Shown here: piece after piece, positions 5,087-63,428 of the stretch
Position numbering within the stretch: position 1 is the stretch's first letter
Layout of the letters: every line of letters begins with the position of its first letter
Assembly: GCA_029531755.1 (NCBI GenBank)
Contig: CM055964.1
Location: forward strand, 36,098,802-36,162,801
DNA: 64,000 nucleotides
Direction of reading: 5' to 3'
Source of the DNA: Holothuria leucospilota
Taxonomy: Eukaryota
The notes under the pieces: model-generated
Seen by the model: the letters and a program-made list of their open reading frames with translations, nothing else
Told to the model about the DNA's origin: nothing
The model's database searches: none
Position numbers and translations under genes: made by a program

Positions 5087-5103
5087 GGGGGGGGGGGGGG
5101 GGG
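5087..5103. repeat. G17 homopolymer tract
   Basis: Direct reading. Similar G/C runs of 10 or more recur through the window (18049-18060, 40080-40092, 47321-47332, 55196-55207, 56746-56758). Confidence 0.8.
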
Positions 5104-9200: not shown

Positions 9201-9284
9201 CTAAAGCTTGAATAACCAAAAAAATGAAAAAAAAAAGAAGGGATTTGTCTGTGCTTCCTCCCTTGTAATGACATGTTTGCAAAG

Positions 9285-11455: not shown

Positions 11456-11468
11456 GCCGTCACATAGG

Positions 11469-11486
11469 CACACACACACACACACG
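11469..11486. repeat. (CA)n microsatellite abutting the satellite
   Basis: Direct reading: cacacacacacacacacg. Confidence 0.8.
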
Positions 11487-12155
11487 ACATCACCATCGCA
11501 TAGATTCCTTGCCTGCCTTCGGCAAGGAATCAAAAAACTGTAAAAAAGCAAGAACCTGACACATGCTTTCAAGTGAGGCACTGAGTCCCACACAAAGGCA
11601 GAAATGTTAGACATTTGTTGCAATGGCATATGATTAATACTCCTGTGGTAGCTACAGTATAGCAGTGAAACACCAGCTGGACAAATACGTAAGGCACACC
11701 CTACTGTACTGTATATTTAGCAACTTAGTTAAAACATCTTGACTTTGAAAGACAAAAAATATGTCATGTGTGAAATGAAAACACCTACTTCAGAAACAAC
11801 TCAGGGGCTGATTTCACCACCATCAACTTTACCGATGATCTCTCAATCACACCCAAACATGAAACAAAGCTTATAGTGCTAGCAATGATTTATTGCTAAA
11901 AGCTATACCTATCAGTTTAGTTCTTTGCATATACTATAACAGTCATTGTTAAAATTGATCCTAAGAGACCTAACTATGATAAAGTTTACGTGAAGTCTAT
12001 TGCAAATATTGACTGCCTAATTGCAATGGATTCCTGGTTTAGCAACAGATATCAGCAATAGCAATCATCACTAAACATTAGCAAAATGGGTGCCAGGTCT
12101 CACCTTTTAACAGCATTTCTCTGACCCTAGCAAGGTTGAATTTTCCAGTACTCAC

Positions 12156-14131
12156 ACCATGGTCACCAGTCACAATTTTGACAACAAGACCCGACATCAA
12201 TTCAACGGAGACACTATCCTCAACTTTTTCTATCTCTCCTTTATTACCAGAGACCTGGGGGCTCAAAGTTTTTCTATCCTCTACAACAAAATCTTTATCT
12301 TTCACCTGAGCCACATGAGATGAGTTTTCAGGAATCCACCCTCTCTCTGGTGGAAGGTTATCTTGCAGATGATCACTGTCATTTAAGATCACAATTTGAT
12401 TTTCACTGACCAGTAAACTTCCGAACCAAATGGGATTGCTCACACTAGTGCTCTCAGAGGACGGCAACTGATGACTTGGCTGAAAGTCTCCTCCAACTTG
12501 GGAACCTTGAAGGTCTGTTCCCATGAACCTGGCACAAGATTCAGTTTCGATATTTGATTTATAGGCAGTGTATCCCATATTGCTTCCATGTTCCATATTT
12601 CCCTCAAATACAGTATCGTTGGCACTACCACTTTCTGAATCACCTATTTTGGGTTTGACATGGTTCAAACATGAAAGTTCTTTCTCCTGATTTGCTAACA
12701 GAGGAATCAGTGTTTCCTCTAATGTATACTCTTGTCCTGTTTGACTTTTGGCCATCTCTGGGCTACTTCCTGTAGTCCTCAAATTGTCATCACTTTTCTC
12801 AGCTTCACTTGCAGGGTGCAAGGCCATTTTATTGCTTTTGCCTAAACTTTGCTTGACTCTGCCAGCATATGTATTATTAGTGCACTCCAGGTCTAAATAT
12901 TGCACACATCTGGTCTCCCCTTTCTCACCACCAGTGTTGGCATTGTCTTTTGACTTGTTTCCTGTGAGATTTGGGAAATTAAGATCAAACTTGTGGGAAG
13001 AGTTTCCAAGTCCGACTTCTAAGTTCATTGCTGAGGTAATGGAACTGGAAGGTGGGCTTTCATTGACTTGGGTTGATCCAGTCGGAGGGTGAACCAACAG
13101 GTCGAAACTAGTGTCTTTTTTATCGTTACTTATGGAATATATTTTTGGTTTGCTATTGCTTTGCGAGGAAGCTGTATCCAGTACCTCTTTGTTGCCTGCT
13201 ATATCCCTGTTTGCATCAGGGCCTGATTGCACACTTGCTTGTATGTTAACTTTCAATTTACTAGCATAAGAGAATCTTTTCTGATCAATGTTTTCATCAC
13301 TCTCTAATGAGTCTCTCCTGGAAGAGGCTGTCGTAGTTGTTGTTGTCGTGCTGATCGGTTCTTCTGCTTCATTCGTACCCAATCTCTTTCTTGCACTACT
13401 ATAGTTGCACATTTCCTTTGGAAGGCTGCTGGATTTCCGTATGTACCATGGGGCATCCTGACTCCGATCATAACGTGGACCCCCAGGATCATAAAACAAA
13501 AAGTTTCTGGAGGCATAACCCTGATGGCCAAAATGGCCAGCCTCCTTAGGCCTCCGCCTCGACCTGCGATTTGTAACAACATTGAATTCACCATCCCCAT
13601 CGTCATTTTCACCAGGATCAGACATGGCTGCTCTGCAGTCATTTTCCTTTACATGTTCACTGTTGCTATGGAAACTACTTGCATCATCAGCTGCTCTTCT
13701 TCTCAAAGCAAACACAGAGGATTCTTTCTTGGAACCAAAATTATTTTGTTCATCTTCTTTTTGTACTTCACATTCTTCTTTTTTATCCTCTGCATCATCC
13801 TCTTTCGAATTAATTGCCTTATTCACTGATTCTAAACTTTCCTCATTCCCTTTCTTCCTCCTCTGCTCTCCTTTCTTCTTTTTACTTACACCACTATCTT
13901 TTGTCCTGGTATTCTTGTCACTCAGTTTTTCCTTCAAATCTATTCTCTTATCTGGGGTTTGATGAACTTTGCTGTCACTTTCTCCAGATAAATTCTCCCT
14001 CTCAGAGCTAGATTCTGCTGAGATCTTCCTGGTGCTGCTTCTATCAGAAGACAAAGATGGAGGCTTGATGACTTCTGTGGAAGATGATTTCACTTCTTCT
14101 CCCTCAGTTGTACTCTCAGCACCATTATCAC
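12156..14131 (-). CDS. Large internal coding exon (658 codons) of an unidentified low-complexity protein rich in Ser/Thr/Lys/Glu
   Basis: Uninterrupted 671-aa minus-strand ORF. On the minus strand the acceptor is tgtttttctag|GTGATAATGG, ending at plus 14131 in phase 1. The donor is CATG|GTGAGTACTG at plus 12155-12150, after codon GGT at 12158-12156, in phase 0. The overlapping short ORFs on both strands are alternative frames. Confidence 0.5.
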
Positions 14132-16239
14132 CTAGAAAAACAATGCCAAGAAATGGTTCAAATTAGGGATATTTCTGAAAATTTGAAAGGAATCAGAACC
14201 ACCACACCAAATGAAAAGTTTCCCTAAAATGAGAAAATTTTGGTGAACAAAATACAGTTGGGACAGAATCAGTGTACATTTAAATATTCTTGTGCATAAA
14301 TGTAATAATTCTCTGAACCTTCAAACTTAAATTTTTCTCCTCCCCTACATCTTTCAAAGAACTGAGGAAGGCTACTACACATGTCTGATGCTTAATTGAT
14401 ATTGCTTCCCCTCTAAAAAATGTAACAGATCATCTTAACTTAATACAATTACTTTAACTTATTGAATGTTGTTTATGAATAGTCTCTGTTGGCTTACTGA
14501 AGTGCAAACACTTATATATGGCACACTACATTCTACGTACGGCTGTGACCATGTAGCAATTAATCGCTAAACAATCGCATGTGGAATAAAGGTTTAGTAC
14601 ATGCTACAATGGGATTAATCGCAAAACATGTTTTCCGTCCATTTTCTATCCATCTGAATACTCTGTAAATGCAGGGTGCATAATATTGGCCCATACATAG
14701 TATGCAGTATGTCATCACGTTGTGATTACTGTTTTAACTACGAAAAAGCCTTTACAGGAATCATGTTTGGGATTTACGGGTATTTCCAATTCATTTTGAA
14801 TAGGCCTATTTATCACATCAATCAACACACAACGAGTCTTTCTGTTGTGATAAGGTAATTGCAATTAATCGCTACACGATTGCAAATTTTTAAGTTTAAT
14901 TAATTGGCGACATGTTCACAGCCCTAATTATACGTAGATGTAGGCCTTGTCAGGGAAGTGTCTTTCGACTCATACCATACCATTATGCTCTTGCAAACGG
15001 ACCTAAAATTGATTGACAGGTACCCTGTGTGATGTCGAGTATGGTACCACCATGCCAGCACAGAATTGAGTAAACCACCATGATACAGACATTCGAAACT
15101 GTTCTCATGGGAAATACTGTAATGGCAAAAGTACTGCTTTCCCTAAAATGTATACGTCCGGAAGGCCAACAAGATTCAGATGACATTCCACCATAGGTCT
15201 TCACCCTTGCCCCTGGACACCTCCTGTTGGACATTCTGCTTTCTACACTAGCCCTGAGCCTATCTTGATACTAAATTAACCGGCACTGATGTTGGCCTAC
15301 TGTAGCTAAAGCTTTGTCAATGACAACACCTCTGAAAGTTAAGTAATACCAATGGGGGCTCTGCCTAGGCCACTGTTCAGGGCTGGCTAATGTACAGTAC
15401 ATGTAGTATCCAAAAGGTGCAAAAAGTGGATTTTCCAACAGCAGTAGACCAGGGACCACAGTGAAGCACAGTTTCCATCAAGGGGGAGAGGAGGGGATTT
15501 GTTCCCCTTTCAAGAAGAAGGGGGGGTAAAATCCATCCTTTTCATTTCCATTAACTAAAAATGTCAATACCTTGGTTTCATACCTAAGAAGAGGAAACTT
15601 GTGCAGCAATGTTTGAAATTACATAGATAAATGGCCTTTAAAACCCTTCAAATTGCACCTTATAGGGGCCTTGAAGCGAGCTTTTGTCCCCCTGAACCCA
15701 CTTGTAATTTTGGCCAAGGACAGCATCAATTTGGAATCAGGGTTTAGTGGTAATAAATCCCCCCATTCCTTTTGAGTTTCTGGTGAAATCCCTGTTAAGG
15801 CTTTCACCATGATTTCTTCTGAACCTCATACTGTACAGTATGCCTTCTGGCTCTTTGGGGGAAAGCCATACTTTTATCATTATTTCCCCTCACACCTGTA
15901 TGTAAATTTTGCATGTCCTGTACAGGGTATTTATTAAATTATGTGCGGTCAGAAAACTACAAATTCACACCAAGCACCAGTCTGACAGTCTGGCTATGGG
16001 AGTTTTAGCTCCTCCCAACTGAGGCTAACTAGCATGGCTAGAACCCTGCTACGGTCATACTGTAAAGGTCGTAGACAAGTGCCTCCAGAGCAGACTTTGA
16101 TGGGTTACTTGAATCTAGCTTCCATATTAAAACTACTCACCAGGAGTCAAACAGAGACATTTTCCTTATAGCCACGAGTTGGCACCTTCTGGAAAATGTT
16201 CAGAATTGTCAAACAAATGCCCCAACATCACACTTCAAG

Positions 16240-16368
16240 TTTTTTTTTTTTTTGTGTGTGTGTGTGTGTTATGTCGCAAGCTTCAATGAAGTAACTGTAT
16301 TGACTGACTGACTGACTGACTGACTGACTAACTGACTGACTGACTGATTGACTGACTGATTGATTGAT
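16240..16368. repeat. Compound microsatellite: T14, (TG)8, then (TGAC)n of about 17 units
   Basis: Direct reading of 16240-16270 and 16301-16368. Confidence 0.85.
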
Positions 16369-16460
16369 GGAAGTTGCCAAAGATTACTCCATAGGTTAAT
16401 TTGAGAAACTAAAAGGAATACTTCTGTTCAATTGTTGCATCATGCACTAAGCTGAATAAC

Positions 16461-17018
16461 TAAAGTCTAGAATTACAAGAATATATAGTTTAGAGGTTGG
16501 AAAATGAATTTCATTCACCCAACTCCCAGTTTCATAGCTTACTCTGTTGCTGAGATATAAAATGTTGAAAGTTATTCACTTAAGTTGAAATAGTAGACTG
16601 CACAATAGTTTGTGATGTCCTTCTTGTACAACTCACATCATCTACTTTTGTTTCCTTTTGAAATTAAATGTCTTTATGACCTTGTAACATGTACTGTTCC
16701 CTTCCACAGCATGTTGTACAGCCAGGATTTACATATACAGTAGCCAAGACACCCTTTAACAGTAAGACAGTTATCATATTTTGGCATAACGTGCAGCAGC
16801 TAAAAAAAAAAAAAGAAAAACAAACAAAGGCAGTAATTTGAGCGGTACAAGAATGGCATCACAAATGATTGTGCAATCTACCATTTTAAATTGATAGAAT
16901 AAGCTTCAACATTTTATGTGCTCAGGAATGTCCTGTGAAGATGCGAGTTGGACCATTTGGATGCATTTTTCAGGCTTTGCAACATATATTTTTGAATTTT
17001 TTAACACTAGGTACACTC
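16461..17018 (+). mobile_element. Dispersed non-autonomous repeat, copy 1 (paralogue at 62641-63428), with an internal A-rich tract at 16801-16830
   Basis: About 85-90% identical to 62641-63428 over taaagtctagaattacaagaatatata...aggtacact. Copy 2 carries an extra segment of about 200 bp (62750-62940). Confidence 0.6.
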
Positions 17019-18290: not shown

Positions 18291-20451
18291 CATGGGCCGC
18301 TCTAAGAAATTTTGTTTGGGGGGGCAAACTCGAGTCCGTATTCAGGGAGGTTCGGAAGACCCCCCCAGCAATATTAATGGTCAGCTCCAGATAGTAATAT
18401 AGCCTCAACAGGAGCATGCATAGGCGTAGGGGCCCAAGTTGATTAGGGGGGAGGGCTGTAACGATCCGCCCGAAAAATAGAAACAAAAATTTCTGCGCGC
18501 TCTGCGCGCGTCCAAAATGTTAATGTACATATCATATAGGCATGCATCCGTTATCACACCACATGTCAATTACATACAATAATTTGCCATGTTACTAGCT
18601 ATTCCATATTGGTTATAATTCTGGGGGAAGTCGTTACCAAAATGCTGCTAATAATCAGTGGCTTAGCCAAGATTTCTCTCATGGGGTGGACAGGCACTAT
18701 GTTGTGTGATCGCTGGCCTGGGGGAGGGGTGTAAGGGGAGGGGGTGTCCCCCTCCCCTTTGAAAATTTTTTGAAAAATTAGGTGTCCATACATGCTATCT
18801 GGTGCCACATATGCTACCTTTGAAGTAAAATTTTGTGTTTTAGTTTAGGTACAAAAAAAAAAAAAAAATCGGCGTCAGTGACGGAGGCATGGCCTAATGG
18901 CTCCTCAAATACACCACTGATAATCATAATATATAAGTTGAACCATTAAAAACACACTGGTGAATTAATACCGTATATATAGGTACTGGTGCAATTCAAA
19001 TCAGAACTATGTTTTAATTACCAAGGAAGTTTTTTTAAAGTATCGACTTCCATTAAGGTACATATTGCATTATTTTTCTTTCAGTAGGTGCCCGAAAAAT
19101 TCTCAGAATATTGCCCGAATTTTCACAAAAATATTTTGTTGGGGGAGCTGCAGCCCCCAGCCCCCTGCCTCCTACGCCTATGGGAGTATGGTTATTATTA
19201 CGTATTACAGCGATGCCCCATGTAGTTTTCAAAAGCTCTTCACACACCATTTCGGGCAGTTAGTCATGAGAAGACTACTTTAAAAATAAATACAACCATA
19301 TCAACCGATCGCTACCGTACTACCATAGGGGTGGAGTAAGAGCCAAGTGAAATGGGCAAAGCGGCTTGATCCATTTGTATAAAATGAGCCCCACCTTTAA
19401 ATATTTTATTGTTTCTTTCATTGTGCCACAATATGTTTCAGCTTTGCCAAGAAGCCATAAAATGTTGGTTTTCTGGATTGTTTTCATAAACTAACGAAAA
19501 TTTCGAGCATGAAGACACTTGAAAATGATGAAATGATAGCACTAGTATTTTGGATCTCAGTACCGTTCCGAAACGAATTTTTTTACAGGGGGAGGGGAAT
19601 TCCCCTAACTCAGAACGACTTCTCATCCTATATACAAATAGCTAGGCCACTAGTCAAAATCTCATCACACTGAGCTTTGATTGACTGTTTGGTGTGTTTA
19701 TTTTAAACCAATTGAAACGGTATATACTTTAGCACAGCTGTGGAGAACCTTTTGCTTATAACAGGCCATTTGACAGTCATAAGACCGCTCGTGGGCCAAC
19801 GGCACTGTCAATTTGGACAAGGGAAGGGAAACCTCTCCTTCTATGGGAAACACAATACTTTTAGACTTCATGCCCGTTACAACTTTTTGTAGACAGATAC
19901 CTATGCTCATCTGGCCAGGTGACACCCTGGCAAAACTGCTTTTAGTCGTGGATGATAATCAACACGGCTAATGGGTTGTGTATCTAATGACCCCGAAAGC
20001 TCTGAAGTGTCTGCAAAACTGTAGGCATTTAACTCCAGCATTACTGTTACACTCTGTAAATGACATTATGATGCCTAAGCTAATCAGATTACAAATATCA
20101 CAACGTGATCATTTGTTTTGATTACCTTAGCTCGCACTAACGGCAGGTCCATTTGTGATGTCTGAAGTATATATACGGTAGTAGCAAACATGCAACTGTG
20201 AAAACGCGCGCGAAGCGCGCTGAAAAAATGGCGTTTTGAAAGCACTTTATTAATGTTTAACCTTCACATTGCATTGAGCGGTTATTCACTCCTTTAATTT
20301 TAAGCCCACTCAAGGAAAAGGGAGGGCCTAACCCATCTCGAATTACATGTTTTTTTATTTATTATTTTTATTTTTGAAAATTGAAGACCATGCTTTGCAC
20401 ACTTTTGGGGGGGCAAGTGCCCCCCCGTGCCCCTATGGCGAGCCGCTAATG
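18291..20451 (+). mobile_element. 2.16-kb non-autonomous DNA transposon, copy 1, hAT- or P-like, with imperfect 12-bp TIR (CATGGGCCGCTC ... GAGCCGCTAATG) and an 8-bp TSD
   Basis: Collinear at about 90% identity with 47287-49455. The flanking 8-mers are CCACAAAC (18283-18290) and CTACAAAC (20452-20459), a 7/8 match. A subterminal inverted GCGCGC-N3-GCGCGC motif lies at 18495-18510 and 20205-20220. Confidence 0.7.
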
Positions 20452-20634: not shown

Positions 20635-21720
20635 TTATAAATTCAGCATTATCCCATTCAAACCTGGTTTATTCTTCTTTTTCTTTTTCCTCTTCTTCTT
20701 TCGCACCGCCTCTCTGTTCACTGCATTTGAGTCCTCAATCTTAGTGTCGTCTGTCTTGCTCATACTTTCATCCCCAGGCAAGTGCGAAGCTTTCATTGTC
20801 CCGTAGTTGCTATATAAACAGAAGTTAGGAGGCACTGTGGGGGACAACACTGGGTTGTCATCTGGGTACACATCCTCCACCTCTCTCTCCCTCTGCTGTT
20901 CCCCCTGTCTCTTCTGGGGTATCTTGGCTGATCTCTCTAATTTGGAATGTCCCAGAATGGGAGTGGACTCTGTTACAAGAACATCTGCTCTATGATTCTG
21001 ATAAATCGGTTCAGGGTCAGGACAATTCTTTAAATCAGCTTCAGACGGTTTACCAATTAGATTAACAGCATTCCCAAGTAACTTGTGTGGAGAGTGAGGG
21101 CCCACAGTGTTGACACCATCAGTATGGTCAGTAGCTTTTACATTTTTTTTGGTAGGCAGAATATCTCTTTTAAGCTTGACAGGACTTACAGAATTTTCCT
21201 TGGCCGTATGTAACTTTGGACCAAAGTGAATTTTATCGTCCACTTGTTCTGGTTTCTGTTTATGTTTTTCCTCACTAGTACTTCTAACTGACATCACTTC
21301 TAACTGTATATCATTGTCTCTCATATGAGAGTTACTACTGAAAGTACCATGCTTCTTCAGTGACAGGGCTTTGCCTCTATCTGATGTAACAGATACATTG
21401 TCTGTCCTTGCACCTACAGGGCAAGTACCCTTTTCATTCAAAGAAACATTTTTGTTGGACACTAGTTCCTCCCTCCCCTCCATTGAAACTGAGCCAGAAA
21501 CGGAACAAAAATTGTGGTTCACATCTGATGGACTGTAACAAGCTAAGTCTTCAGACTTCAATCCATTCAAAGAATTCGACAAGGATCCAAAATCATTTCC
21601 AAGGAATGTTTGAGAAAGTTTTGACATAAGGTCATCTGCAGCTTGAAAATCAGCCTTCAAGGTTTCAAGTTCTTCGGGATGTTCTAGAAGTTCACGTACC
21701 CTCTCTTTAATACTTTCCAC
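20635..21720 (-). CDS. 3'-terminal coding exon of an unidentified protein (coiled-coil-like N-terminal part, Ser-rich middle, polybasic KKKRKKKKKNK tail)
   Basis: On the minus strand the acceptor is ttctccattctttcag|GTGGAAAGT at plus 21720 in phase 0. The ORF then runs VESIKERVRELLEHPEELETLK... to a TAA ending at 20635. The first 66 residues of the track ORF (21721-21918) lie upstream of this acceptor and are presumably intronic. Confidence 0.45.
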   Translation of the reverse strand: MESIKERVRELLEHPEELETLKADFQAADDLMSKLSQTFLGNDFGSLSNSLNGLKSEDLACYSPSDVNHNFCSVSGSVSMEGREELVSNKNVSLNEKGTCPVGARTDNVSVTSDRGKALSLKKHGTFSSNSHMRDNDIQLEVMSVRSTSEEKHKQKPEQVDDKIHFGPKLHTAKENSVSPVKLKRDILPTKKNVKATDHTDGVNTVGPHSPHKLLGNAVNLIGKPSEADLKNCPDPEPIYQNHRADVLVTESTPILGHSKLERSAKIPQKRQGEQQREREVEDVYPDDNPVLSPTVPPNFCLYSNYGTMKASHLPGDESMSKTDDTKIEDSNAVNREAVRKKKRKKKKKNKPGLNGIMLNL

Positions 21721-22787
21721 CTGAAAGAATGGAGAAATATAAGAGTTAAAAATATTAAACATACTCAAAATATTCACAATTGTGACCTGACAACTCACAG
21801 CCCACCTCCTCAGCCCCCACATAATATGACCATCGGGATATTTCCCTCTGGTTAACTCCTGGGACAATCTCCACCCCAAACAACTTACCCCTGGACAACT
21901 CCCACCCATGACAATCACAGTTCAGACCACTTACACACCATAACATTTAGAGATGTCCTGGGTGGGACTTGTCCGGGTGGGAATTGTCAAGGAGGGATTG
22001 TCCAAGAACCATTCCAAATAATAAGCCAAAATGCCAAGACCTAAGAATATTCAAGTCTTTTGAGCAGGGCTTGACAAATCCCCTGCCCGACAGTCTGAGG
22101 CAAGAAAAAAAATCACTTGGGCAAGTGCACTATTCAATATCGTAGTCCGTCGGGCAATCACCTCTGCAGAGTCTTCTCCTCATAAGCAATTGGGCAAATT
22201 CAAACTGGACAAGTAAATAATCAAGTGGGCAAATGGGCTTGTCTACAGTAAAGGAAAATATTCAGTGTGTGTTTTTTGCTTTGATGATATTTTGAAAGAT
22301 GTCACAATAGTTTGGTGATTTTACAGTTCACCATACTTGGAGGACTATAGAGAGATAATAAAGACAATTTTATCAATGTCCAACTTATATAAAGGATGTT
22401 TTGGGCAGAATTTGGGGCTATTTTGGCCTTTTTTACCACCTATAAGTGTTACATAGGATGTGGAATAAAGTTATGATGTGAGTGGGACCTTTGCAGATGT
22501 GACTGATGCAGGTTCTTTGTCTTCATTCATAAATGTAATGTAATAAATGGTAAATGATAAATGAATATTTTTAGGTGCACAAACACTGCAAAATTTTATC
22601 AGCAATTTGGAGTAAAATTTTGAGATTTGTCTGTTCATCTGGATATTAAATCTTAATAGTTGATATTTTAACTGAAAGAAAAGATTTCCAGAGCTAAGGT
22701 TATGATGTAACACTTAACCTTGATCATGTGCAGTACCACAAATAAAATAATCCAGCAGTAAATGCATCATAGTCAATTGCGGAGCAC

Positions 22788-30229: not shown

Positions 30230-30968
30230 TTAAGGAACTTGAAGGACTTCTGGCTGCTGCTGATAGCTCAAACGGGTGGGTTTCAGTACAGAAAGGTAGA
30301 AAGCCTGTTGAAATTGCAGAGGGGTGTCCAGCTGTTGAGATGTCAAATTCTTTTGCGGGATTATCAGTGGAGGATATTGTTCAGGAGGTTGTAGAGGAAT
30401 CAAAGGAAGGGGACCTTGGTATTTCTGGTGGTCTGTGGGAGGGTGAAAAGGCTAAGGGTAAGGTTCTGTTTGTCGGGGACTCCACTACTCGGTATACTCA
30501 TAGGGAATTTTGTAAGAAGGACTGAAGGACTGAAGGAATAGGGTAAGGATTTGTCTCCCAGGTGCTAGAATTGAGGACATCTCGGCCAGAGTTAGCAAAA
30601 TTGTTCGGGACGATGAAGTTGTAGCTGTGCAAGTGGGCACTAATAATCTCAGTCGGGACAATCAAATTTCACTTAGGTCAAAGTATAAGGAACTGATTTG
30701 TAGGCTGAAGTCGACACGTACGAAAGGGGTTGTTTGTGGTATTCTCCCCCGGTTTGACAGGAAGGTCTCTTGGGGCAAAATTTTGGGATTTAATAAGTGG
30801 TTGAAAAATGAGTGTGCGCTTGAGGGTTTTCTCTTTGTTGATACCTGGGCTGGTTTTGTAAATAGGAGGGATCTTTTTGCTAAAGATGGGTTGCACTTGT
30901 CGAGCATAGGGGCTAACGAGTTGGGTAGGCTGGTTTCTAGGGCTGTTGATTCTCAGGTGTCAAACTAG
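30230..30968 (+). CDS. LINE ORF1 with an SGNH/GDSL-type esterase domain, interrupted by one frameshift between about 30525 and 30627
   Basis: Frame 1 gives ...KELEGLLAAADSSNGWVSVQKGRKPV...KVLFVGDSTTRYTHREF. Frame 2 gives ...ARIEDISARVSKIVRDDEVVAVQVGTNNLSRDN...DGLHLSSIGANELGRLVSRAVDSQVSN*. Confidence 0.7.
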
Positions 30969-30976
30969 AGTCAGGG

Positions 30977-33852
30977 GTGAGGTCAGCCAAGAATGGGGGG
31001 GTTTCTGAGTTTTATTGTGCTCAGAGTGATTGCGTTAGTAACAAGGGGAAGCATGTAAATAGGGCTGTTTGTGGAATGAAGGTCATGTTTGCCAATGTTC
31101 GCAGCCTTTTCAATAAGTTCAAAGAGTTCCTTGCTCATATTTCCATAGACAATCCAGACATAGTTGGGGTTACCGAAACTTGGCTCCATAGCGATATCAG
31201 CAACTCTGAAATTCAGGTTCCTGGGTACAAAATTTTCAGGCAAGATAGGGCTGATACTGCCTGTGGTAGAGGTGGAGGGGTTTTACTGTATGTTAAGGAT
31301 AGCATAAATTGTGTTGATGTCACCAACAAGTTTTCTTCTGGATTTTCTAACTGCTTGTGGTGTGAAATTAGTTTTGTCAATGAGTCTTGCACTCCTTTAG
31401 TTGTTGGTATTATTTATCGTTCACCAAATTCTTGTGCTGATAATAAGTTCAGAGTTTGTTTGAAAGTTTTCGGAAAGTCTCTTCAAAAAGGGCAGTTGTG
31501 TTTGGGGATTTCAACTTTCCTGATATTGATTGGCATTCATGTACTAGTGGGTCACATGGGAGGGATTTTCTTGAGGCAGTGTCTGATGGTTTCTTTACCC
31601 AGCATGTTCTGTTTCCCACTCGTGAGGATAATTGTCTAGATCTGGTGCTAAGTACTGATGAAAACATGGTTAGAAATGTAGCTAGTGGTGGTAAGATAGG
31701 ATCTAGTGACCATGACCTCATTAGCTTTGAGTTACTTTGTTTCAACAAGCTTCAAGGTAGTGACAAAACTGTTTTAGATTTCAGCAAGGCTAACTTTACT
31801 CATGCTAAAGAGCTTCTTACCATAGATTGGGTTGCACGTTTGTCTCACTTAGGCCCTGCTGAAGCATGGAGTGTTTTTCGTAATATAGTTACTGACACTA
31901 CAAAGTTGTGTATCCCACTCAAGAAAGCTGTGGTTAAAAATAGGCCAATCTGGATGTCTAGAGAGGTACTTAGAGCAGCCAGGAAGAAATGTAAGTGTTG
32001 GCGTCGTTATAGGGTCAGTAAGAATTCTGATGACTTTGCAGTCTACAAGAAGCAGGAACTCTTAGTTAAAAATTTGGTTATTGACACTAAAGCTAAGTTT
32101 GAAAAGCAGTTGGCCAAGGAGGTTAAGGTAAATCCAAAATCTTTTCATGCCTATGTCAGGTCTAAGCAGAAGGTTAAGGAGGGTGTTGGGCCTCTCCAGG
32201 GTAATCAAGGCACACTAGTTAGTGATCATCAGGATATGGCTAATTTGTTAAATGATTATTTCGTATCTGTTTTTACCAAGGAATCATCTATTTTGGGGAC
32301 TTGTAGGGATTCTGATAATTCTTCTTTAGTTAGTGATGTTGTCTTCTCTGAAGAGTTGGTTTGTAATAAGTTGAAGAGTTTAAAAGCTAGTAAGGCTCCT
32401 AGGCCTGATGGGATCCATCCTGCCATTCTCCATGAATGCTCCAAGATTTTGTCAGTTCCTCTTTGCATTATTTTTCAGAAGTTTCTGGATTCAAACTTTG
32501 TACCTGCTGACTGGCGGATTGCTAATGTTACTCCAATATTTAAAAAGGGGGATCGGAGCTTGCCTTGCAATTATAGGCCGGTCAGTTTAACCAGTGTTGT
32601 GTGCAAAGTTATGGAATCTGTAATCAAGGATTGTTTGCTTAAATATCTTTTAGATAATGGGCTACTCAATCTGTCACAGCATGGTTTTTTACCGAGTAGA
32701 TCTTGTGTTACTAATTTACTAAGCTTTCTTGAGGATGTTTCCTTATCTCTTGATTCTGGTCACAGTGTTGATGTCATTTACCTTGATTTTCAAAAAGCCT
32801 TTGATAAAGTTCCATTAGGTAGACTTATGGTTAAACTGCATAGGTTAGGCATCAAGGGCAGTTGTGCTGACTGGATAAATTCATGGCTCAATGGTAGATC
32901 CCAGAGAGTTGTTGTTAATGGTAATTTCTCTTCTTGGAAAGAAGTTACTAGTGGAGTTCCACAGGGTTCTGTTCTTGGCCCGCTTCTTTTCTTAATTTTC
33001 ATCAATGATATTGATAGCTCTCTCACATCTAGTATTAGTAAGTTTGCTGATGATACTAAGCTCTATAGGAAGGTTAGTGATAAGGATGATGCCTCATTAC
33101 TGCAAAAAGACTTGGATAGGTTATTTTCATGGTCTCAGACTTGGCAAATGTCTTTTAATGCAGATAAATGCAAAGTCCTTCACTTTGGTCCTAAAAATTT
33201 CAGCTATGTTTACAACATGAATGGTAGTATTCTGAGTGATGTGTCTTTTGAGAAGGATCTGGGTGTAGTTATTACAGGTGATTTAAAGCTATCTAGACAG
33301 TGTGCAGCTGCTGCTGCTAGGGCTAATAGGGTGCTTGGATTGATCAAGAGGAATTTCAGTAGTTTTAGTAAAGAAATTGTACTAAATCTGTATAAGCAGT
33401 TGGTAAGACCCCACCTCGACTATGCAGCCAAGGCCTGGAGTCCCCTCCATGAAAAGGACAAGTTTCTTTTAGAGCAAGTTCAGAGGAGAGCCACTCGCCT
33501 TATACCCGAGGTGAGACACCTACCTTATCATGTCAGACTTAAGCATCTTGGGCTTACCACCCTGGAGTTGAGAAGGATTCGGGGGAACATGCTTCAGGTG
33601 TACAAATTTCTCTCTGAAAGGAATACTTTGTCATCTTGCAATTATTTAAAGGTTCAATGTGATTCTCGGGTTCGAGGCCATTGTAAGAAGCTAGTTAAGT
33701 GTTTTGCAAGGCTCGACATTAGGAAGTTCAGCTTTTCTCATAGAGTTGTTGACGAGTGGAATAGTCTGCCTGAGTGGGTAGTTAACTCTACATCTGTACA
33801 CTGCTTTAAGGTTAACATTGACAAGTTCTTCCATAACTGTGGTAGGATCTAA
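30977..33852 (+). CDS. LINE ORF2 (APE-type endonuclease plus reverse transcriptase) with one apparent frameshift at about 31440-31460 between the 220-aa and 798-aa track ORFs
   Basis: The 30977 frame ends in ...VVGIIYRSPNSCADNKF then becomes nonsense. The 31456 frame continues ...RAVVFGDFNFPDIDW.. through the RT and C-terminal tail to the stop at 33852. Confidence 0.85.
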
Positions 33853-36515: not shown

Positions 36516-36725
36516 GGTGGCGCCAGGTGGGGGAAGGGTTCATGCCCCCCGTCGGGAAGGCTGGCCCCCTATCGGGGAAGTTTTACAGTTTCATCGGGGA
36601 GTCTTAGTCGAAAGTATGCAGTCCCGGACGACAACTAGTCGCCCTGACGGTTTACCTGTTTTTTACTCTCAATCGGATAATGTCTCTACTAAGAACCCCA
36701 AATTTTCAGCGCGCTACGCGCGCTG
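36516..36725 (+). mobile_element. Partial (5' half) copy of the CAGGGGTGGCGCCAGGTGGGG hAT-like MITE family
   Basis: It starts gcggtggcgccaggtgggggaagg...ccccgtcgggaagg...gtcgccctgacggtttac and ends at the GCGCGC motif at 36707-36725. Confidence 0.45.
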
Positions 36726-36781
36726 TAGAGTCACTCTTTTTTTCTTCAATAAGTCCATTCCACATAGCAGGATAGCACAAG

Positions 36782-36898
36782 CAGGGAGCTGTTATCGGAT
36801 GACAGCTCCCTGGCACAAGTCCTGTTCACCTTACCAAGTAACATATAGGCAGAGTACATAGTTTATGCAGGGAGCTGTTATCCGAATACAGCTCCCTG
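36782..36898. repeat. Two direct copies of a perfect 31-bp hairpin (cagggagctgt-N9-acagctccctg) at 36782-36812 and 36868-36898
   Basis: Direct reading: an 11-bp perfect stem with a 9-nt loop (tatcggatg or tatccgaat). Confidence 0.6.
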
Positions 36899-36943
36899 GT
36901 TTATGTAAAGGTAGTAACTTTCATCCAATATCGCAAAGCCTAG

Positions 36944-38760
36944 TTGGTGTTGTCTTGTGTGTGTCATGCGGTAGCAGCGGTACAGTCAGTTGGTGAGCGA
37001 CTTACGGAGCAAAGTTTGGCTATTTCATCGTGTAGTCCAGGTGGTTTCGATACAATACATGTTACACCCGATATGGTCTACAGACCTTACAACTTTTTTT
37101 CCTTTTCAACATATGTTTTATACGGAAGCGTATTGTTGTCACGTAGAAAAAAAAAAAAAACTTTTCGTACGTACGATCGAAAATCTTTTCGTACGTACGA
37201 AAAAACTTTTGGAACGTTCGAAAATCTTTTCGTACGTACGAAAAAACTTTTGAAACGTTCGAAAATCTTTTCGTACGTACGAAAAAACTTTTGGAACGTT
37301 CGAAAATCTTTTCGTACGTTCGAAAATCTTTTCGTACGTACGAAAAAACTTTTGGAACGTTCGAAAATCTTTTCGTACGTTCGAAAATCTTTTCGTACGT
37401 ACGAAAAAACTTTTGGAACGTTCGAAAATCTTTTCGTACGTACGAAAAAACTTTTGGAACGTTCGAAAATCTTTTCGTACGTACGAAAAAACTTTTGGAA
37501 CGTTCGAAAATCTTTTTGTACGTACGAAAATCTTTTCGTACGTACGAAAAGATTTTGGAACGTTCGAAAATCTTTTCGTACGTTCGAAAAAATTTTTGAA
37601 ACGTTCGAAAATTTTCGAACGTACGAAAAGATTTTCGAACGTACGAAAAGATTTTCGAACGTACGAAAAGATTTTCGAACGTTCCAAAAGTTTTTTCGAA
37701 CGTACGAAAAGATTTTCGAACGTTCCAAAAGTTTTTTCGTACGTTCCAAAAGTTTTTTCGTACGTACGAAAAGATTTTCGAACGTACGAAAAGATTTTCG
37801 AACGTTCCAAAAGTTTTTTCGTACGTACGAAAAGATTTTCGAACGTTCCAAAAGTTTTTTCGTACGTACGAAAAGATTTTCGAACGTTCCAAAAGTTTTT
37901 TCGTACGTACGAAAAGATTTTCGAACGTTCCAAAAGTTTTTTCGAACGTACGAAAAGATTTTCGAACGTTCCAAAAGTTTTTTCGTACGTACGAAAAGAT
38001 TTTCGAACGTACGAAAAGATTTTCCAACGTTCCAAAAGTTTTTTCGTACGTACGAAGAGATTTTCGAACGTTCCAAAAGTTTTTTCGTACGTACGAAAAG
38101 ATTTTCGAACGTACGAAAAGTTTTTTTTTTTTTTTTTTACGTGACAACAATACGCTTCCGTAGTTTTATGTGTAAGCCTACCAAATATTTTCGCCCGCTT
38201 CGCGCACTGTTCAACTTCACGATCCAGATTCAAAGAGCACTATCAGTGCGCAACTCGGATCTTGAAGTATTAAGCAATATAATGCAACTATGCCTGCAAT
38301 GGCATGGGATAATGAGGCTCCTCCATTTGCCCTTCTCATCATCCCTTCGAAATAGGGAATGTCGGAACGTGGGCCAGCTGACATGGCTGTCGTAAGGTTA
38401 ATTTCTGGGATAAAGACCAAAATTTTCGGTAGGCTTTGTCCACTCTTCCTAAGTTCCGTTATACATATAGATAAATAATACAAACCCTTTCCACCTTTTC
38501 AAGTTAATAAGTAGAATACATGGATTTATGTAAATGTCGGGAACTGAATCGCATTTCGCTAAACCTGGTTAAAGTTCACTCGTGTCTGTCGTATGGTACG
38601 GCTAGTGACTCGAGGAGGGAAGTACAATAAAGTTACGCTCGATAGGGCCCAACTGCCCAATTGTTCTATTTAAGCTTTAAATTGGTACAAATTCTTATAA
38701 GTGTAGGCTGACCCCAAAATTTTCGCGCGCTTCGCGCGCTTTGCAAATTCCCCGTTTAGA
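36944..38760 (+). repeat. Copy of a dispersed host repeat of about 0.8 kb, interrupted at 37113-38162 by the Foldback-like element. An uninterrupted paralogue lies on the minus strand at about 57060-57880
   Basis: 36944-37112 matches the reverse complement of 57760-57880. 38165-38310 matches the reverse complement of 57570-57720. 38400-38760 matches the reverse complement of 57060-57420. Confidence 0.6.
37113..38162. mobile_element. Foldback-like transposon, 1050 bp. It has perfect 24-26-bp TIRs (TACGGAAGCGTATTGTTGTCACGTAG), internal A-run and T-run, and two mutually inverted arrays of about 41-bp tandem units. It is flanked by a direct GTTTTA (37107-37112 and 38163-38168)
   Basis: 37113-37138 is the reverse complement of 38139-38162. 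A14 lies at 37139-37152 and the T-run at 38121-38138. The left arm unit is cttttcgtacgtacgaaaaaacttttggaacgttcgaaaat and the right arm is its reverse complement. The symmetry centre is near 37610. In the 57.7-kb paralogue the site reads acatatattttttgtgtaaaacc, which is uninterrupted. Confidence 0.8.
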
Positions 38761-39555
38761 TTCCAGGTTTTGATTCCAGTTTTTGCATGTTTCTTAGTTT
38801 ATCCTTTCTTTGTCAATATGCGGTAAATTGTATAATCGCTGACGTTTATGGGAACCAAAATTAAAAAAAGAAAACGAATGTGCCCTTTTTATGTTGGACC
38901 CCACCTCAGAAAAGACCCTGGATCCGCCCCTGCCCACCCCGCGGTTTCGATGCTCTGGAAAGAACTGGGCTTCGTGGTCATGAGAGTGCGCTTTCAATTG
39001 GGTGACTGTCGTTGTTGACAAAAATCTTGAATGAATGGAAGGCAGAATTGTAAAAATGTTCTTCATTCTGTTCCAGACATTGAAAGAATAATCGCTGTAA
39101 TGCATGATTGAACAGAGATAAGGTTTTGTCATGTCTTTTCCGACGACTTCAATACCAGGTGTAGAGTCATCTTTAGGGAGAGATTTTAAGTTTGAAACAT
39201 ACATTAGTTATCTACCCAGTTAAGCTCCTTCGAGCCCTAAACAGTTCTTCCATCAGAGTAGGACAATTCTTGCAGGAATTTTTATAATAAGAGGCCGACA
39301 TTGGGAAGAAAAAAGGGATGAAGGTCGAACAGGTACTTTTTATTTCCTTGGCAGCCATTTTATTCTCAGACGGCTTTTACGGACAGGTAGATGCGGAGGA
39401 GAAAATTGCGAGACGGCGTTTCAGAGTAAGAGGTAAGATTATAGGATGTCCATTTTGAATATATAAGCAGATAAGCTACGTTTATTTCAATCTTTCAGGT
39501 ATGTTTATAGCTATCCTTCTTTCTCATATACTTTCTGTTCTGGCATCTGCTGAAT

Positions 39556-43766: not shown

Positions 43767-43810
43767 TCATAGTAGGGAGTTGCTACTAGTGGCAACTCCC
43801 TGATCATAGC
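43767..43810. repeat. 28-bp near-perfect palindrome (agggagttgctactagtggcaactccct) bracketed by a direct tgatcatag repeat
   Basis: Direct reading. The stem is related to the cagggagctgt hairpins at 36782-36898. Confidence 0.45.
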
Positions 43811-47286: not shown

Positions 47287-49455
47287 CATGGGCGGCTCTA
47301 AGAAATTTTGTTTGGGGGGGGGGGCAAACTCAAGTTCGTATTCAGGAAGGTTCGGAAGACCCCCAGCAATAATAATGGTCAGCTCTGGATAGTACAATAG
47401 CCTCAATAGGAGTATGCATAGGCGTAGGGTCCCAAGTTGATTTGGGGGGGGGGGGGCTGTAACGATCTGCCCGAAAAATAGAAACAAAAATTTCCGCGCG
47501 CTCCGCGCGCGTTCAAAATGTTAATGTACATATCATATAGGCACGTTATCACACCGCATGTCAATTACATACAATAATTTGTCACGTTACTACCTATTCC
47601 ATATTGGTTATAATTCTGGGGGAAGTCGTTACAATAATGATGATAATAATCAGTGGTGTGGCCAAGACTTCTCTCATGGGGGTGGGGCAGGCACTATGTT
47701 GTGTGATCGCCGACCTAATTTTTTGAAAAATTAGGTGTCCATACATGCAATCTGGTGCCACATATGCTACCTTCGAAGTAAAATTTGTGTTAAAAAATTT
47801 ACCGTACGTATTTTAGGTACTAAAAGGAAAAAATAGGCATCACCCCCTACCCTTTGAAAATTTTTGAAAAATAAGGTTTCCTTACATGCAATCTGGTGCC
47901 ACATATGCTACCTTTGAAGTAAAATTTTGTGCTTTATTTTAGGTACTAAAAAAAATCGGCGTCAGTAACGGGGGAATGGCCTAATGGCTCCTCAAATACA
48001 CCACTGATAATCATAATATATAAGTTGAACCATTAAACAACACACTGGTGAATTAATACCAGATATATAGGTAATGGTGCAATCCAAATCAGAGCTTTAT
48101 TTTAATTACCAAGGAAGTTTTTTAAAGTATCGATTTCCGTTAAGCTACATTATTGCATTATTTTTCTTTCAGTAGGTGCCCGAAAAATTCTCAGAATATT
48201 GCCCGAATTTTCACAAAAATATTTTGTTGGGGGAACTGCAGCCCCCCAGCCCCCGCCTCCTACGCCTATGGGAGTATGGTTATTATTATGTGTTACAGCG
48301 ATGCCCATGTAGTTTTCAAAAGCTCTTCAAGAACCATTTCAGGCAGTTAGTCATGAGCTGACTACTTTAAAAATAAATACAACCATATCAACTGATCGTT
48401 ATCGTACTACCATATGGGTGGAGTAAGAGGCAGGTGAAATGGGCAAAGCGGCTTGATCCATTTGTATAAAATGAGCCCCACCTTTAAATATTTTATTGTT
48501 TCTTTCATTGTGTCACAATATGTTTCAGCTTTGCCAAGAAGCCATAAAATGTTGGTTTTCTGGATTTTTGTTCTTAAACTAACGAAAATTTCGAGCATGA
48601 AGAAACTTGAAAACGATAAATAGATAGCACTAATTATTTTGAATCTCAGTACCGTTCCGAAACGAATGCTTTTAAAGGGGAAGAGGAATTCCCCTAACTC
48701 AGAACGACGTCTCATCCTATATACAAATTAGCTAGGCCACTAGTCAAAAGTCTCATCACACTGAGCTTAGATTGACTGTTTGGTGTGTTACTGTTTATTT
48801 TAAATCAATTGAAACGGTATACTTTAGCACGAAGGTGGAGAACCTTTTGCTTATATCAGGCTACTTGACAGCCATAAGACCGCTCGTGGGCCAACGGCGC
48901 TGTCAATTTGGACAAGGGAAGGGAAACCTCTCCTTCTATGGGAAACACAATACTTTTAGACTATAAGCCCATTACAACTTTTTGTAGACAGATACCTATG
49001 CTAATCTGGCCAGGTGACGCCCGGGCAAAACTGCTTTTAGTCGTGGATGATAATCAACACGGCTAATGGGTTGTGTATCTAATGACCCCGATAGCTCTGA
49101 AATATCTACAAAACTATGGGCATTTAATTCCAGCATTACCGTTACACTCTGTAAATGACATTATGATGGCTAAGCTTATCAGATTACAAATAAGCAACTG
49201 AGAAAACGCGCGCGAAGCGCGCCGAAAAAATGTCGTTTTGAAAGCACTTTATTAATGTTTAACCTTCGCATTGCATTGGAAAGTTATTCACTTCTTTAAT
49301 TTTAAGCCCACTCAAGGAAAAGGGAGGGCCTAACCCATCTCGAAGTACATGTTTTATTTTATTTATTATTTTCATTTTTGAAAATTGAAGACCATGCTTT
49401 GCAAACTTTTTTGGGGGGGCAAGTGCCCCCCGTGCCCCTATGGCGAGCCGCTAAT
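47287..49455 (+). mobile_element. Copy 2 of the 2.16-kb hAT/P-like non-autonomous DNA transposon, with an 8-bp TSD
   Basis: Collinear with 18291-20451. The flanks are ATATTATG (47279-47286) and ATATTATA (49456-49463). It carries the internal tandem duplication ttttgaaaaattaggtgtccatacatgcaatctggtgccacatatgctacc at 47712-47790 and 47850-47940. Confidence 0.7.
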
Positions 49456-56803: not shown

Positions 56804-57059
56804 TTGTCTCGTTATCTAAGCGGAGCGCGACCATCGGTTGGCGCCAGGATTTGCCCAACGGGGGGGGGCAGACTCCCCGACGACGGGCCAGCGACCCGAA
56901 GCCCCGACAGCCATGATGTCGTCGAGGAATTGGTGAGGAAGAATTTGAAGAAAACTTGTGTACTAGATTATGACATTGCGGGGTATATATTTCATAATAT
57001 TTGTATATACTAGAGAAATATATTTCCGCCCTGATTTATCGTTTTTCCTAGAATCTAAA

Positions 57060-57880
57060 CTGTGAAATTTCAAAGCGCGCGAAATTTTTTGGATAGGTCT
57101 ACACTAAAAAGAATCTGTACTTATTTGAAGCATATATAGATATATAGGTCAATTGTCAAGGCAGTTGGGCCATATCGGGCATAACCTACGCTGAACTTCC
57201 CTCCTCGAGTCACTAGCAGTACCGCACGACAGACACAAGAGAATATTAACTAGGTTTAGCAAAGTAAGATGAAATGACCGACATTTACATAAATCCATGT
57301 ATTCTACTTATATTAAGTTACTTGTAAAGGTGGAAAGGGTTTGTACTATATTTAGCTATTAGTAACGGAACTGAGGAAGAGTGGACAAAGTGGACCGAAA
57401 ATGTTGGATTTTAACGTAGAAATGCCCCTTTTGAAAGCCAAAATAAGTAAACCGACCAGGTCGGTAGCGACAGCATTTTCCCGACAGGGGACCGGATCAT
57501 GCAGTGACCCGAAGTTCCGACAGCCCCTATGTCGAGGGGGTGGTAAGGAGGGGATATGAAGGAGCCTAAATATCCCAAGTCATTGCAGGGCATATTTTGC
57601 ATAATATCACTGAATACTTCATGAGCCGAGTTGCGCACTGATAGTGTACTTTTGAATCTGAAACGTAAAGTTGCAAAGCGCGCGAAGCGCGCGAATTTTT
57701 TTTGGTTTTACACAAAAAATATATGTAATCATTAAGAACAAAAAGAAAAAAGAAAAACTGTAGGGGTTGTAGACCACATCAGGGATAACATATATTTTAT
57801 CGAAACCACCTGGACTACCCTATGAAATGCCCAGACTTTTCTCCTTGAGTCGCTCACCAACTGACCGTACCGCATGACAC
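57060..57880 (-). repeat. Paralogue of the host repeat at 36944-38760, without the Foldback element. It carries an inserted MITE fragment at about 57430-57560
   Basis: See the matching segments listed for 36944-38760. Confidence 0.6.
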
Positions 57881-57989
57881 ACACAAGACAACAGCAAGTA
57901 GACTTTGCGATATGGGATGGAATTTACGACCTCTACCTACATGTTACTTGTTACGTTTGACAGGTCTTGTGCTATTTAGCAATGTATAA

Positions 57990-58242
57990 TGGAAGTACTG
58001 AAGAAACTGGAGTGACTCTACCGCGCGCCTAGCACGCCGAAAATTTTGGGTTCTTTTAAGGGATATTGTCGTCTTGAGAGCAAAAAACAGGTAAACCGTC
58101 GGGGCGACTTGTCGCCGTTTGGGGTCTACACACTTTACCGTATCGACTAAGACTCTCTGACTGTAAAAAAAACTGTAAAAAACTGTAAAACTTCCCCGAC
58201 GGGGGGCCATGCCCATCCCTGTCCCCCACCTGGCGCCATCAC
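57990..58242 (-). mobile_element. Partial hAT-like MITE copy in reverse orientation
   Basis: ccgcgcgcctagcacgccgaaaattttggg, then gtaaaccgtcggggcgacttgtcgcc, then cttccccgacggggggccatgccc, then cccccacctggcgccatcac. This is the reverse complement of the family layout. Confidence 0.5.
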
Positions 58243-62640: not shown

Positions 62641-63428
62641 CCTAAAGTCTAGAATTACAAGAATATATATTTTAGAGGTTAGAAAATGAATTCCATTCAT
62701 CTAACTCCCGTTTTCATAGCTTACTCCATTGCTGAGATATAAAAGCCTTTTGGTTAGTTAGTTAGTTAGATGAGGTTCAACGTCCCAGTTTCCAACCAAT
62801 TGGTTCAAGTCGAGACGACCACGGCCTTTATCCAGTTGTGGCTCACTGGCTTGTTTTCCCTGCTCCACTGCTTATGCTGAGCACCAAGCACAAAGGCAGT
62901 AGGTTCCATTTTTAAAGTCTTTGGTATGACCCGGCCAGGATTTGATAAAATGTTGAAGTTTATTCACTTAATTAATTTGAAATAGTCGATTGCGCAATAA
63001 GTTGTGATGCCCTTCTTGTACAACTCACATTACCTGTTTTTGTTTTCTTTTAAAATTAAGATGTTTACATGACCTTGAAACATTTACTGTTCCCTTGCAT
63101 AGCATGTTGTTGAGGGAGGGCTTATATAGCAAATCACCCTATAAAAAGTAAGACAGTGATCAAATTTTGACACAAGGTGCAGTGGCTTTCGAAAAAAAAA
63201 CAAAAAACAAAAAACAAAAAAAAAAACAAGGACTGTAATTTGAGTTGTACAAGAATGACATCACAAATTATTGCGCAATCTACCATTTTTAACTGAGTGA
63301 ATAAGCTTCAACATTTTATATCTTGGCTTAGGAATATCCTGTGAAGATGGAAGTTGGACCATCTGGATGCACTTTTCAAGCTTTGTAACATATATTTTTG
63401 AAATTTTAGACTTTAGGTACACTTTAAT
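62641..63428 (+). mobile_element. Copy 2 of the dispersed repeat seen at 16461-17018
   Basis: See the copy 1 entry. The internal A-rich tract is at 63193-63230. Confidence 0.6.

Follow-up and report, generated by a model that had tools for sequence, protein, structure and literature searches.

The 64,000-nucleotide stretch of Holothuria leucospilota DNA analysed here (contig CM055964.1; "the window" below means this whole stretch) carries at 37121–38162 a 1,042-bp element without coding capacity, which is made of short exact inverted ends and two arrays of small tandem repeats, and lies inside an older dispersed repeat between two copies of the hexamer GTTTTA. We interpret it as a member of a sea cucumber family of foldback-type DNA transposons that is non-autonomous and moves by cut and paste, a classification that is very likely correct whatever superfamily is involved. 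We lean, with moderate confidence, towards the integrase-like IS3EU/GingerRoot superfamily as the source of its transposase. To the explanation as a whole, superfamily included, we assign a probability of about 0.74. An earlier reading made from the letters alone (the original prediction) had described a palindromic, non-coding element with a target-site duplication, inserted in a repeat; these main claims survive the tests reported below, with corrections to several of the details.

Structure of the element and its insertion site

The element begins and ends with an exact terminal inverted repeat of 25 bp, TACGGAAGCGTATTGTTGTCACGTA, at 37121–37145, whose reverse complement occupies 38138–38162. 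Exact inverted termini had been predicted, at a length of 26 bp and at coordinates that prove to be 8 bp too low; the termini exist, but the 26th bases (left G, right A) do not pair, so that the exact repeat stops at 25 bp. Allowing up to 3 mismatches, TACGGAAGCGTATTGTTGTCACGTA has two matches in the 64-kb window, both of them element ends, with 0 expected by chance. Just inside the termini lie the A14 and T18 runs that had been noticed before, at 37147–37160 and 38121–38138, the latter taking in the first base of the right inverted repeat. The parts of the element and of the surrounding host repeat are as follows.

37115–37120 (no strand): left target-site duplication GTTTTA; same hexamer at 38163–38168
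37121–37145 (+): left terminal inverted repeat, 25 bp, starting TA; exact reverse complement at 38138–38162
37146–37160 (+): linker, G followed by A14, read from the sequence
37161–37611 (+): left arm, about 22 subrepeats (A, B, C) in a single orientation, from repeat and arm alignment
37602–37621 (no strand): symmetry centre in a palindrome, from orientation switch and hairpin fold
37612–38120 (−): right arm, about 25 subrepeats, inverted; 97% identical to the left arm barring whole-unit indels
38121–38137 (−): T run mirroring the A-rich linker; the full T18 reaches 38138
38138–38162 (−): right terminal inverted repeat, 25 bp, ending TA; exact match to the left end
38163–38168 (no strand): right target-site duplication GTTTTA; same hexamer at 37115–37120
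36541–37114 (+): host dispersed repeat, left part; 78% identical to 58220–57047
38169–38800 (+): host dispersed repeat, right part; aligned to the paralogue at 57047–58220
57047–58220 (−): host-repeat paralogue with unoccupied site; 78% identical, aligned through the junction

Everything between the linkers is a tandem array. Tandem Repeats Finder reports it with a period of 41 (37178–38119, 23.1 copies, 89% matches), in agreement with the predicted units of about 41 bp, but the true unit is 20–21 bp long and exists as variant A (CTTTTCGTACGTACGAAAAAA), variant B (CTTTTGGAACGTTCGAAAAT) or variant C (CTTTTCGTACGTTCGAAAAT). We count about 47 units with a mean length of 20.4 bp, roughly 22 in the left arm and 25 in the right. 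All units from 37161 to 37611 share one orientation and all units from 37612 to 38120 have the opposite one, so that the switch, placed near 37610 by the original prediction, falls between 37611 and 37612 within the palindrome CGTTCGAAAATTTTCGAACG. The two halves are not the exact reverse complements they had been taken for: the arms, 491 and 551 bp long, are 97.0% identical in an alignment of 467 columns. Five indels of 19–21 bp (that is, whole units) and a few gaps of 1–4 bp set them apart, and their unit order is not exactly mirrored. The perfect palindrome reported inside the units, TTTTCGTACGTACGAAAA, is present 14 times. Because the arrays are joined head to head without a spacer, the entire element is one long imperfect palindrome, and a fold computation on the single-stranded DNA returns one hairpin of −548 kcal/mol. 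These are features of the foldback class: inverted arms that make up most or all of an element (here all of the 1,042 bp, with neither spacer nor middle domain), and a short unique end followed by tandem subrepeats whose number differs between arms and, as described below, between copies.

The window copy has no coding capacity, which is also usual for the class. Five open reading frames (ORFs) of 243–483 aa, of which three are minus-strand and two plus-strand, are listed across the array; they are artefacts, since the array has almost no stop triplets, as the original prediction had argued for frames of 360–480 aa. A word-indexed protein search with the translated array found no homologues, and Pfam gave only low-complexity matches to the array ORFs, sub-threshold or borderline. 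We discount one of them, ComR_TPR in ORF 37254–38141 (29.8 bits, cut-off 26.5), as an artefact of low complexity, the translation being periodic and the DNA eukaryotic. Long ORFs called over this array in genome annotations are therefore spurious.

Evidence for insertion comes from the flanks. GTTTTA stands directly on both sides of the element, as predicted; six bases would agree by chance at one given position with a probability of about 3e-4. The flanking DNA is, also as predicted, a dispersed repeat with a minus-strand paralogue in the window. The minus strand of this paralogue at 57708–57726 reads ACATAT-ATTTTT-TGTGTAA, the hexamer corresponding to the duplication lying at 57715–57720; once the element and one GTTTTA are removed, the resulting ACATATGTTTTATGTGTAA aligns without a gap to the paralogue's ACATATATTTTTTGTGTAA across the junction, which bears out its description as an unoccupied site. 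The host repeat contains an ORF fragment that, in an exhaustive protein search, matches the H. leucospilota protein HOLleu_37114, and the same kind of search with the ORF spanning the element recovered further host-repeat copies through their short ORFs. Two of these, one on a Tara Oceans marine metagenome contig (L002) and one on another assembly in the European Nucleotide Archive (ENA; L003), continue uninterrupted across the site in base-by-base alignments (...ACATATATGTTTTTGTGTAAG... and ...TCATATGGGTTTTGTGTAAG...), and in a third, likewise from ENA (L005), a single ungapped BLAST hit covers the insertion site. Thus the site is empty, with a single related hexamer, in four of the four other host-repeat copies, namely the window paralogue and the three from public contigs.

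These empty sites bear directly on the possibility that there was no transposition at all, and that a satellite arose and grew inside the host repeat before an inverted duplication. The array is indeed satellite-like and very homogeneous. Its 25-bp ends, however, are unique and unrelated to the host repeat, the 6-bp duplication is exact, and the four other host-repeat copies cross the site cleanly and carry none of the array, which removes expansion in place; the same ends and units moreover occur at two unrelated loci with different flanks. An origin in place is effectively refuted and keeps almost no probability.

Related copies, age and the palindromic interior

Those two loci were reached through proteins. 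An exhaustive search of representative proteins with the array translation led to P0247 and from it to an 8.6-kb contig (L001; ENA ERZ26859072). At its C-terminus P0247 consists of array peptide followed by an F run and, in another frame, the terminal repeat. The element on this contig, at 4465–5813, has terminal repeats at 24/25 and 25/25 positions and the duplication CAACAT/CAACAC (5/6); it carries one subrepeat on the left and 10 on the right, separated by a non-coding middle of about 1 kb that is partly another dispersed repeat. A weaker match, P0246, led to a contig (L004) assembled by Logan from the Stichopus fusiformiossa run SRR32120645 (Nanopore Iso-Seq; PMC12152155). Here the element lies at 136–713 between perfect TAACAA duplications, and its arms are uneven (units uncounted). 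Its ends read TACGGAAGCATATG... and ...AAGCATCCATA, the right one at 19/25 positions and the left one shorter and diverged, and most CpGs of its units have decayed to TG/CA (CpG observed/expected 0.85).

Alignment of the six ends from the window, L001 and L004 shows a conserved terminus, an A-rich linker and the first units; L001, and L004 at its right end, likewise have the linker behind the terminal repeat. All three copies have TA...TA ends (TACGG...CCGTA in the window and L001, TACGG...CCATA in L004), and the duplication is read as 6 bp in each, at 6/6, 5/6 and 6/6 positions for the window, L001 and L004, respectively. The number of subrepeats is far less constant, ranging from 1 to 25 per arm among the four arms counted (window and L001). 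Copies sharing the termini, without which the original prediction would have been in difficulty, are thus at hand, with 6-bp duplications of their own and at dispersed, unrelated sites whose flanks differ. Because of these two members, the family is, by sequence comparison, multi-copy, foldback-type and size-heterogeneous, and present in at least two holothurian lineages as old and young copies.

Some searches were uninformative. A DNA scan with TACGGAAGCGTATTGTTGTCACGTA gave 0 matches in JGI metagenome contigs, GTDB genomes and IMG/VR, as did a scan with a two-unit pattern in the JGI contigs; these collections hold no animal genomes, and the zeros therefore say nothing on copy number. Exact look-up of window ORFs (36944–38395 and the ORF of the retrotransposon described below) in the contig index returned no record.

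Two apparent differences between the window and L001 were dismissed. B-type units seemed to be flipped in orientation; since the sequences on either side of them, CTTTT...AAAAT, are not flipped, a unit variant with two substitutions, GGAACGTTCG versus CGAACGTTCC, is the better explanation. A W in P0247 had hinted at a change of TGA to TGG in the terminal repeat of L001, where the DNA in fact reads TGA. The predicted genes at 5268–5828 of L001, 821–1396 of L002 and 147–608 of L004 do not translate to the query proteins; our guess is that genes on these animal contigs may have been called with a genetic code in which TGA stands for Trp, as the W in P0247 hints for L001, and that spurious ORFs are lengthened in this way.

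The window copy looks like a young insertion, because its CpGs are intact and its terminal repeats and duplication are perfect. It has 127 CpGs in 1,042 bp at a G+C content of 34%, an observed/expected ratio of 4.3, compared with 0.53 for the rest of the window and 0.8–1.0 for the host-repeat copies. Such a contrast with the surrounding DNA, together with a very strong cruciform potential, might instead be expected of transposon-derived sequence retained for a host function, for instance as a CpG island kept free of methylation, in gene regulation, or as an origin or boundary at which a cruciform forms. Young age, however, is enough to account for the CpGs of the window copy; that of Stichopus has lost most of its own through CG to TG/CA changes, hence the array is not conserved; and nothing ties the element to a gene. 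We hold a host function to be very improbable.

The near-symmetry of the window copy raises a different concern, namely that the insertion is real and its palindromic interior (arm lengths, symmetry, missing middle) is partly a product of assembly, or in the extreme case a chimeric-read artefact. The sole published H. leucospilota assembly was made with wtdbg from PacBio Sequel I continuous long reads (PMC10120082), and long-read assemblers can collapse, expand or mirror arrays of this kind. Both relatives are asymmetric, L001 with 1 versus 10 units and a middle domain and L004 with uneven arms, so that the window copy is the odd one out. A mirrored read, on the other hand, would not give arms with their units in different order and five whole-unit indels between them; the same 25-bp end stands at both junctions, with a perfect duplication and flanks colinear with the empty paralogues; and the same termini and units recur in independent assemblies. 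An assembly origin for the interior consequently seems improbable, if less so than a host function.

Proposed superfamily assignment and mobilization

In complete IS3EU families, TA..TA termini are constant and a duplication of 6 bp is usual (Kojima 2023, PMC10045372). For GingerRoot, Cerbin et al. (2019, PMC6839031) report TA...TA ends in 72/77 elements and a duplication of 6 bp, a length that they call 'relatively rare among known TEs' (transposable elements). The holothurian family shows both sequence-level marks, and it is because 6-bp duplications and 5'-TA...TA-3' ends occur together in all three copies that we favour IS3EU/GingerRoot. It differs from these elements in that the window copy encodes no transposase and its inverted repeats are the whole element; GingerRoot inverted repeats in Selaginella are 100–150 bp long, and a search of the source (PMC6839031) found no mention of tandem repeats.

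A transposase-bearing element of the same architecture does exist. A profile search for IS3EU returned 5,190 related proteins from marine animals, and one of them, 70% identical to the IS3EU-1_SK core, led to a contig (L006; ENA ERZ25071788) with an apparently near-complete element of 7,682 bp at 8726–16407, flanked by a perfect 6-bp AAGAGA duplication. Its ends read TATGGAAAGCC...GGCTTTCCATA, and its inverted repeats, about 740 bp long and 95–96% matched, each have a unique end of 38 bp and then about 26 units of 21 bp in tandem. The interior holds an ORF with a weak helix-turn-helix match and then an integrase-core ORF (rva_4, E = 1e-67). L006 thus resembles the holothurian family in its long inverted repeats of 21-bp subrepeats behind a short unique end and in a similar terminal motif, TATGGAAAGC (TAYGGAA(A)GC versus TACGGAAGC). 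Apparently a foldback-type IS3EU element, it is worth description in itself. In the searchable literature we found no paper that connects IS3EU to foldback structure; the sole text there with both words lists IS3EU-like oyster satellites.

Several results weigh against our interpretation. Only three family copies have been seen, and one of their duplications is imperfect (5/6). Six IS3EU transposase cores, taken from the supplement of PMC10045372, gave no tblastn match to the window or L001, so the window is without IS3EU-like coding sequence, and no transposase-encoding copy with the termini TACGGAAGCG...CGCTTCCGTA was found in the window or the retrieved contigs. None of the 120 IS3EU-like proteins listed among the 5,190 carries a holothurian label. 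L006 has no DNA in common with the window, and is therefore an analogue and not a partner; the likeness of terminal motifs spans only about 10 bases, and the subrepeat sequences of the two are unrelated. L006 is also the only one of the three IS3EU loci retrieved that has recognisable boundaries, the other two (L007 and L008), probably degraded copies, being without recognisable inverted repeats or duplication. The arm unit counts are those of the assembled sequence, and the subrepeats are probably binding sites by an argument drawn from Galileo alone, as set out below.

Most described foldback elements are of Mutator type and Galileo is of P type (PMC4079207, PMC4168063, PMC3169594). These precedents, and the lack of an IS3EU partner for the family, favour the alternative of a foldback-type non-autonomous transposon from another superfamily, be it P/Galileo-like, Mutator/Phantom, or an atypical hAT or Dada element. 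The window copy can even be read with a 7-bp duplication, GTTTTAT, and ends offset by one base, and this heptamer fits five of the seven positions of the Galileo target consensus GTATTAC (PMC4168063). The 7-bp reading nevertheless fails in L004 (TAACAAT versus TAACAAA) and in L001 (CAACATT versus CAACACA) and was abandoned; readings of 8–10 bp are impossible, and the TA...TA ends fit IS3EU. Among the individual candidates, Mutator/Phantom-type Foldback elements are marked by duplications of 8–10 bp, where the three insertions show 6 bp, and the P superfamily with Galileo by 7–8-bp GTANTAC duplications, where a 7-bp reading is available in the window copy only. Dada elements make 6–7-bp duplications, lack terminal inverted repeats and target small-RNA genes (PMC3706591); here the 25-bp inverted repeat is perfect and the window has no Rfam match. 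A different superfamily is, in our judgement, unlikely, though it deserves more weight than any other alternative considered here.

Under the IS3EU/GingerRoot assignment, the following sequence of events would account for the element. Since it encodes nothing, its mobility would have to depend on a transposase supplied in trans, which would bind the 25-bp ends, probably the sites of recognition and cleavage, and excise the element. Insertion through a 6-bp staggered cut in the target, followed by repair, would leave the GTTTTA duplication. Tandem repeats in the inverted repeats of Galileo have been shown to carry transposase-binding sites (PMC4079207, PMC4168063, PMC3688188), and by analogy the near-palindromic subrepeats of 20–21 bp are probably extra binding sites for the transposase's DNA-binding domain; a mean spacing of 20.4 bp, about two helical turns, would set all of them on one face of the DNA. 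The number of units would drift by slippage or unequal exchange, which could produce both the whole-unit indels between the arms and the range of 1–25 units.

Comparison with described elements places the family among foldback elements by architecture and apart from them by its duplication. Drosophila FB, Tetris (PMC4079207) and Tm1 (PMC3169594) likewise have long arms made of a short unique end and variable short tandem repeats, mostly non-coding copies, unequal repeat numbers between arms and an unstable, satellite-like structure. Their duplications are 8–10 bp, mostly 9 (PMC4079207, PMC3169594), as against 6 bp here, they share no sequence similarity with our family, and the ends here are symmetric and start with TA. 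The original label of FB/TU-like is accordingly apt for the architecture and inapt for the 8–10-bp duplication of Mutator-type Foldback elements. Galileo of Drosophila shows that a foldback-like architecture can occur outside Mutator, in the P superfamily (PMC4168063, PMC3688188); it differs in its 7-bp (rarely 8-bp) duplication with the consensus GTANTAC, its P-type transposase with a THAP domain and in being known from insects only (PMC4168063, PMC3688188).

Foldback-type elements are a long-known class, echinoderms included. The TU elements of sea urchin have modular inverted repeats containing short tandem repeats, and as an echinoderm foldback family they are likened to ours by description, not by sequence. 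The report of foldback elements from sea urchin is given here as cited in PMC4079207 (Liebermann et al. 1983).

Our results suggest that foldback structure has also evolved inside the little-studied IS3EU/GingerRoot superfamily, because the family combines 6-bp duplications with TA...TA ends and because a transposase-bearing IS3EU element shares its architecture. If so, a third, integrase-related superfamily would join Mutator/Phantom and P among the independent origins of foldback elements. It is an even bet whether a unique end followed by arrays of about 21-bp subrepeats is a recurrent IS3EU/GingerRoot design in marine animals, of which the holothurian family would be the transposase-less extreme. 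The element, with its 25-bp end and repeated 20-bp palindrome, would then be a simple system in which to study the use of multiple subterminal sites by an integrase-like transposase. In other animals, foldback-type elements such as Galileo and Tetris give rise to inversions, deletions and new satellites. A young, CpG-rich, hairpin-forming copy is likely to be a fragile site and a sign that transposons have recently been active in sea cucumber genomes, of which many are now being assembled.

Other features of the window

The window has 40% G+C and a low coding density, with no tRNA genes or Rfam families in its 64 kb. A long interspersed nuclear element (LINE) with endonuclease and reverse-transcriptase domains lies at about 30950–33850, and the best named relative of its ORF is an H. 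leucospilota protein, 97% identical; this match and that of the host repeat to HOLleu_37114 assign the window to a sea cucumber, either H. leucospilota or a species near to it. A 145-bp satellite occupies 9285–11450 (15 copies, 89% matches); a diverged form of it, at about 70% identity, is found at 241–918 of L001, the contig with the second foldback copy.

The two perfect 31-bp hairpins described upstream of the element by the original prediction are real. They lie at 36782–36812 and 36868–36898, are nearly identical, and consist of CAGGGAGCTGT, a 9-nt loop and ACAGCTCCCTG. Exact direct repeats of 7 bp enclose them, GCACAAG the first and GTTTATG the second. Both hairpins are missing from the paralogue, where the first has a clean empty site and the second falls within a 56-bp segment that the paralogue lacks. 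They look like independent insertions of a micro-transposon with two 11-bp inverted ends and a 7-bp duplication, and are unrelated to the foldback family with its 6-bp duplication. Over a distance of about 350 bp, the host-repeat copy at 36541–38800 has thus taken up three separate insertions, those of the two mini-hairpins and that of the foldback element, and the paralogue at 57047–58220 none. The foldback target, ACATAT-GTTTTA-TGTGTAAG (37100–37120 plus 38163–38180), resembles that of the second mini-hairpin, ACATA-GTTTATG-TAAAGG (36850–36867 plus 36899–36915); with so few sites, the resemblance could be coincidence, local duplication in the host repeat or a common target preference.

An automatic check flagged no other perfect hairpins (stem of at least 10 bp) with flanking direct repeats in the window. 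A third mini-hairpin of this type is present at 43773–43802 (TAGGGAGTTGC, an 8-nt loop and GCAACTCCCTG), flanked by ATCATAG (7 bp) or, if the element is one base shorter, by GATCATAG (8 bp); its C/TAGGGAG ends resemble hAT-type termini.

Two minus-strand open frames, 12081–14162 (694 codons) and 20638–21921 (428 codons), are rich in Ser, Lys and Glu and have no Pfam match; their products are probably disordered, and they look like large exons of a host gene. Direct repeats pair 18446–20369 with 47447–49371 (90–96% identical, about 29 kb apart) and 16460–17017 with 62642–63423 (86–91% identical, about 46 kb apart), either as dispersed repeat copies or as a segmental duplication. Finally, a G+C hairpin module, AAATTTTCGCGCGC-TTC-GCGCGC, recurs at about 18490, 36705, 38185, 38715, 47490, 52050 and 56690, embedded in several different repeats that include both ends of the host repeat, and may be the core of another small mobile element.

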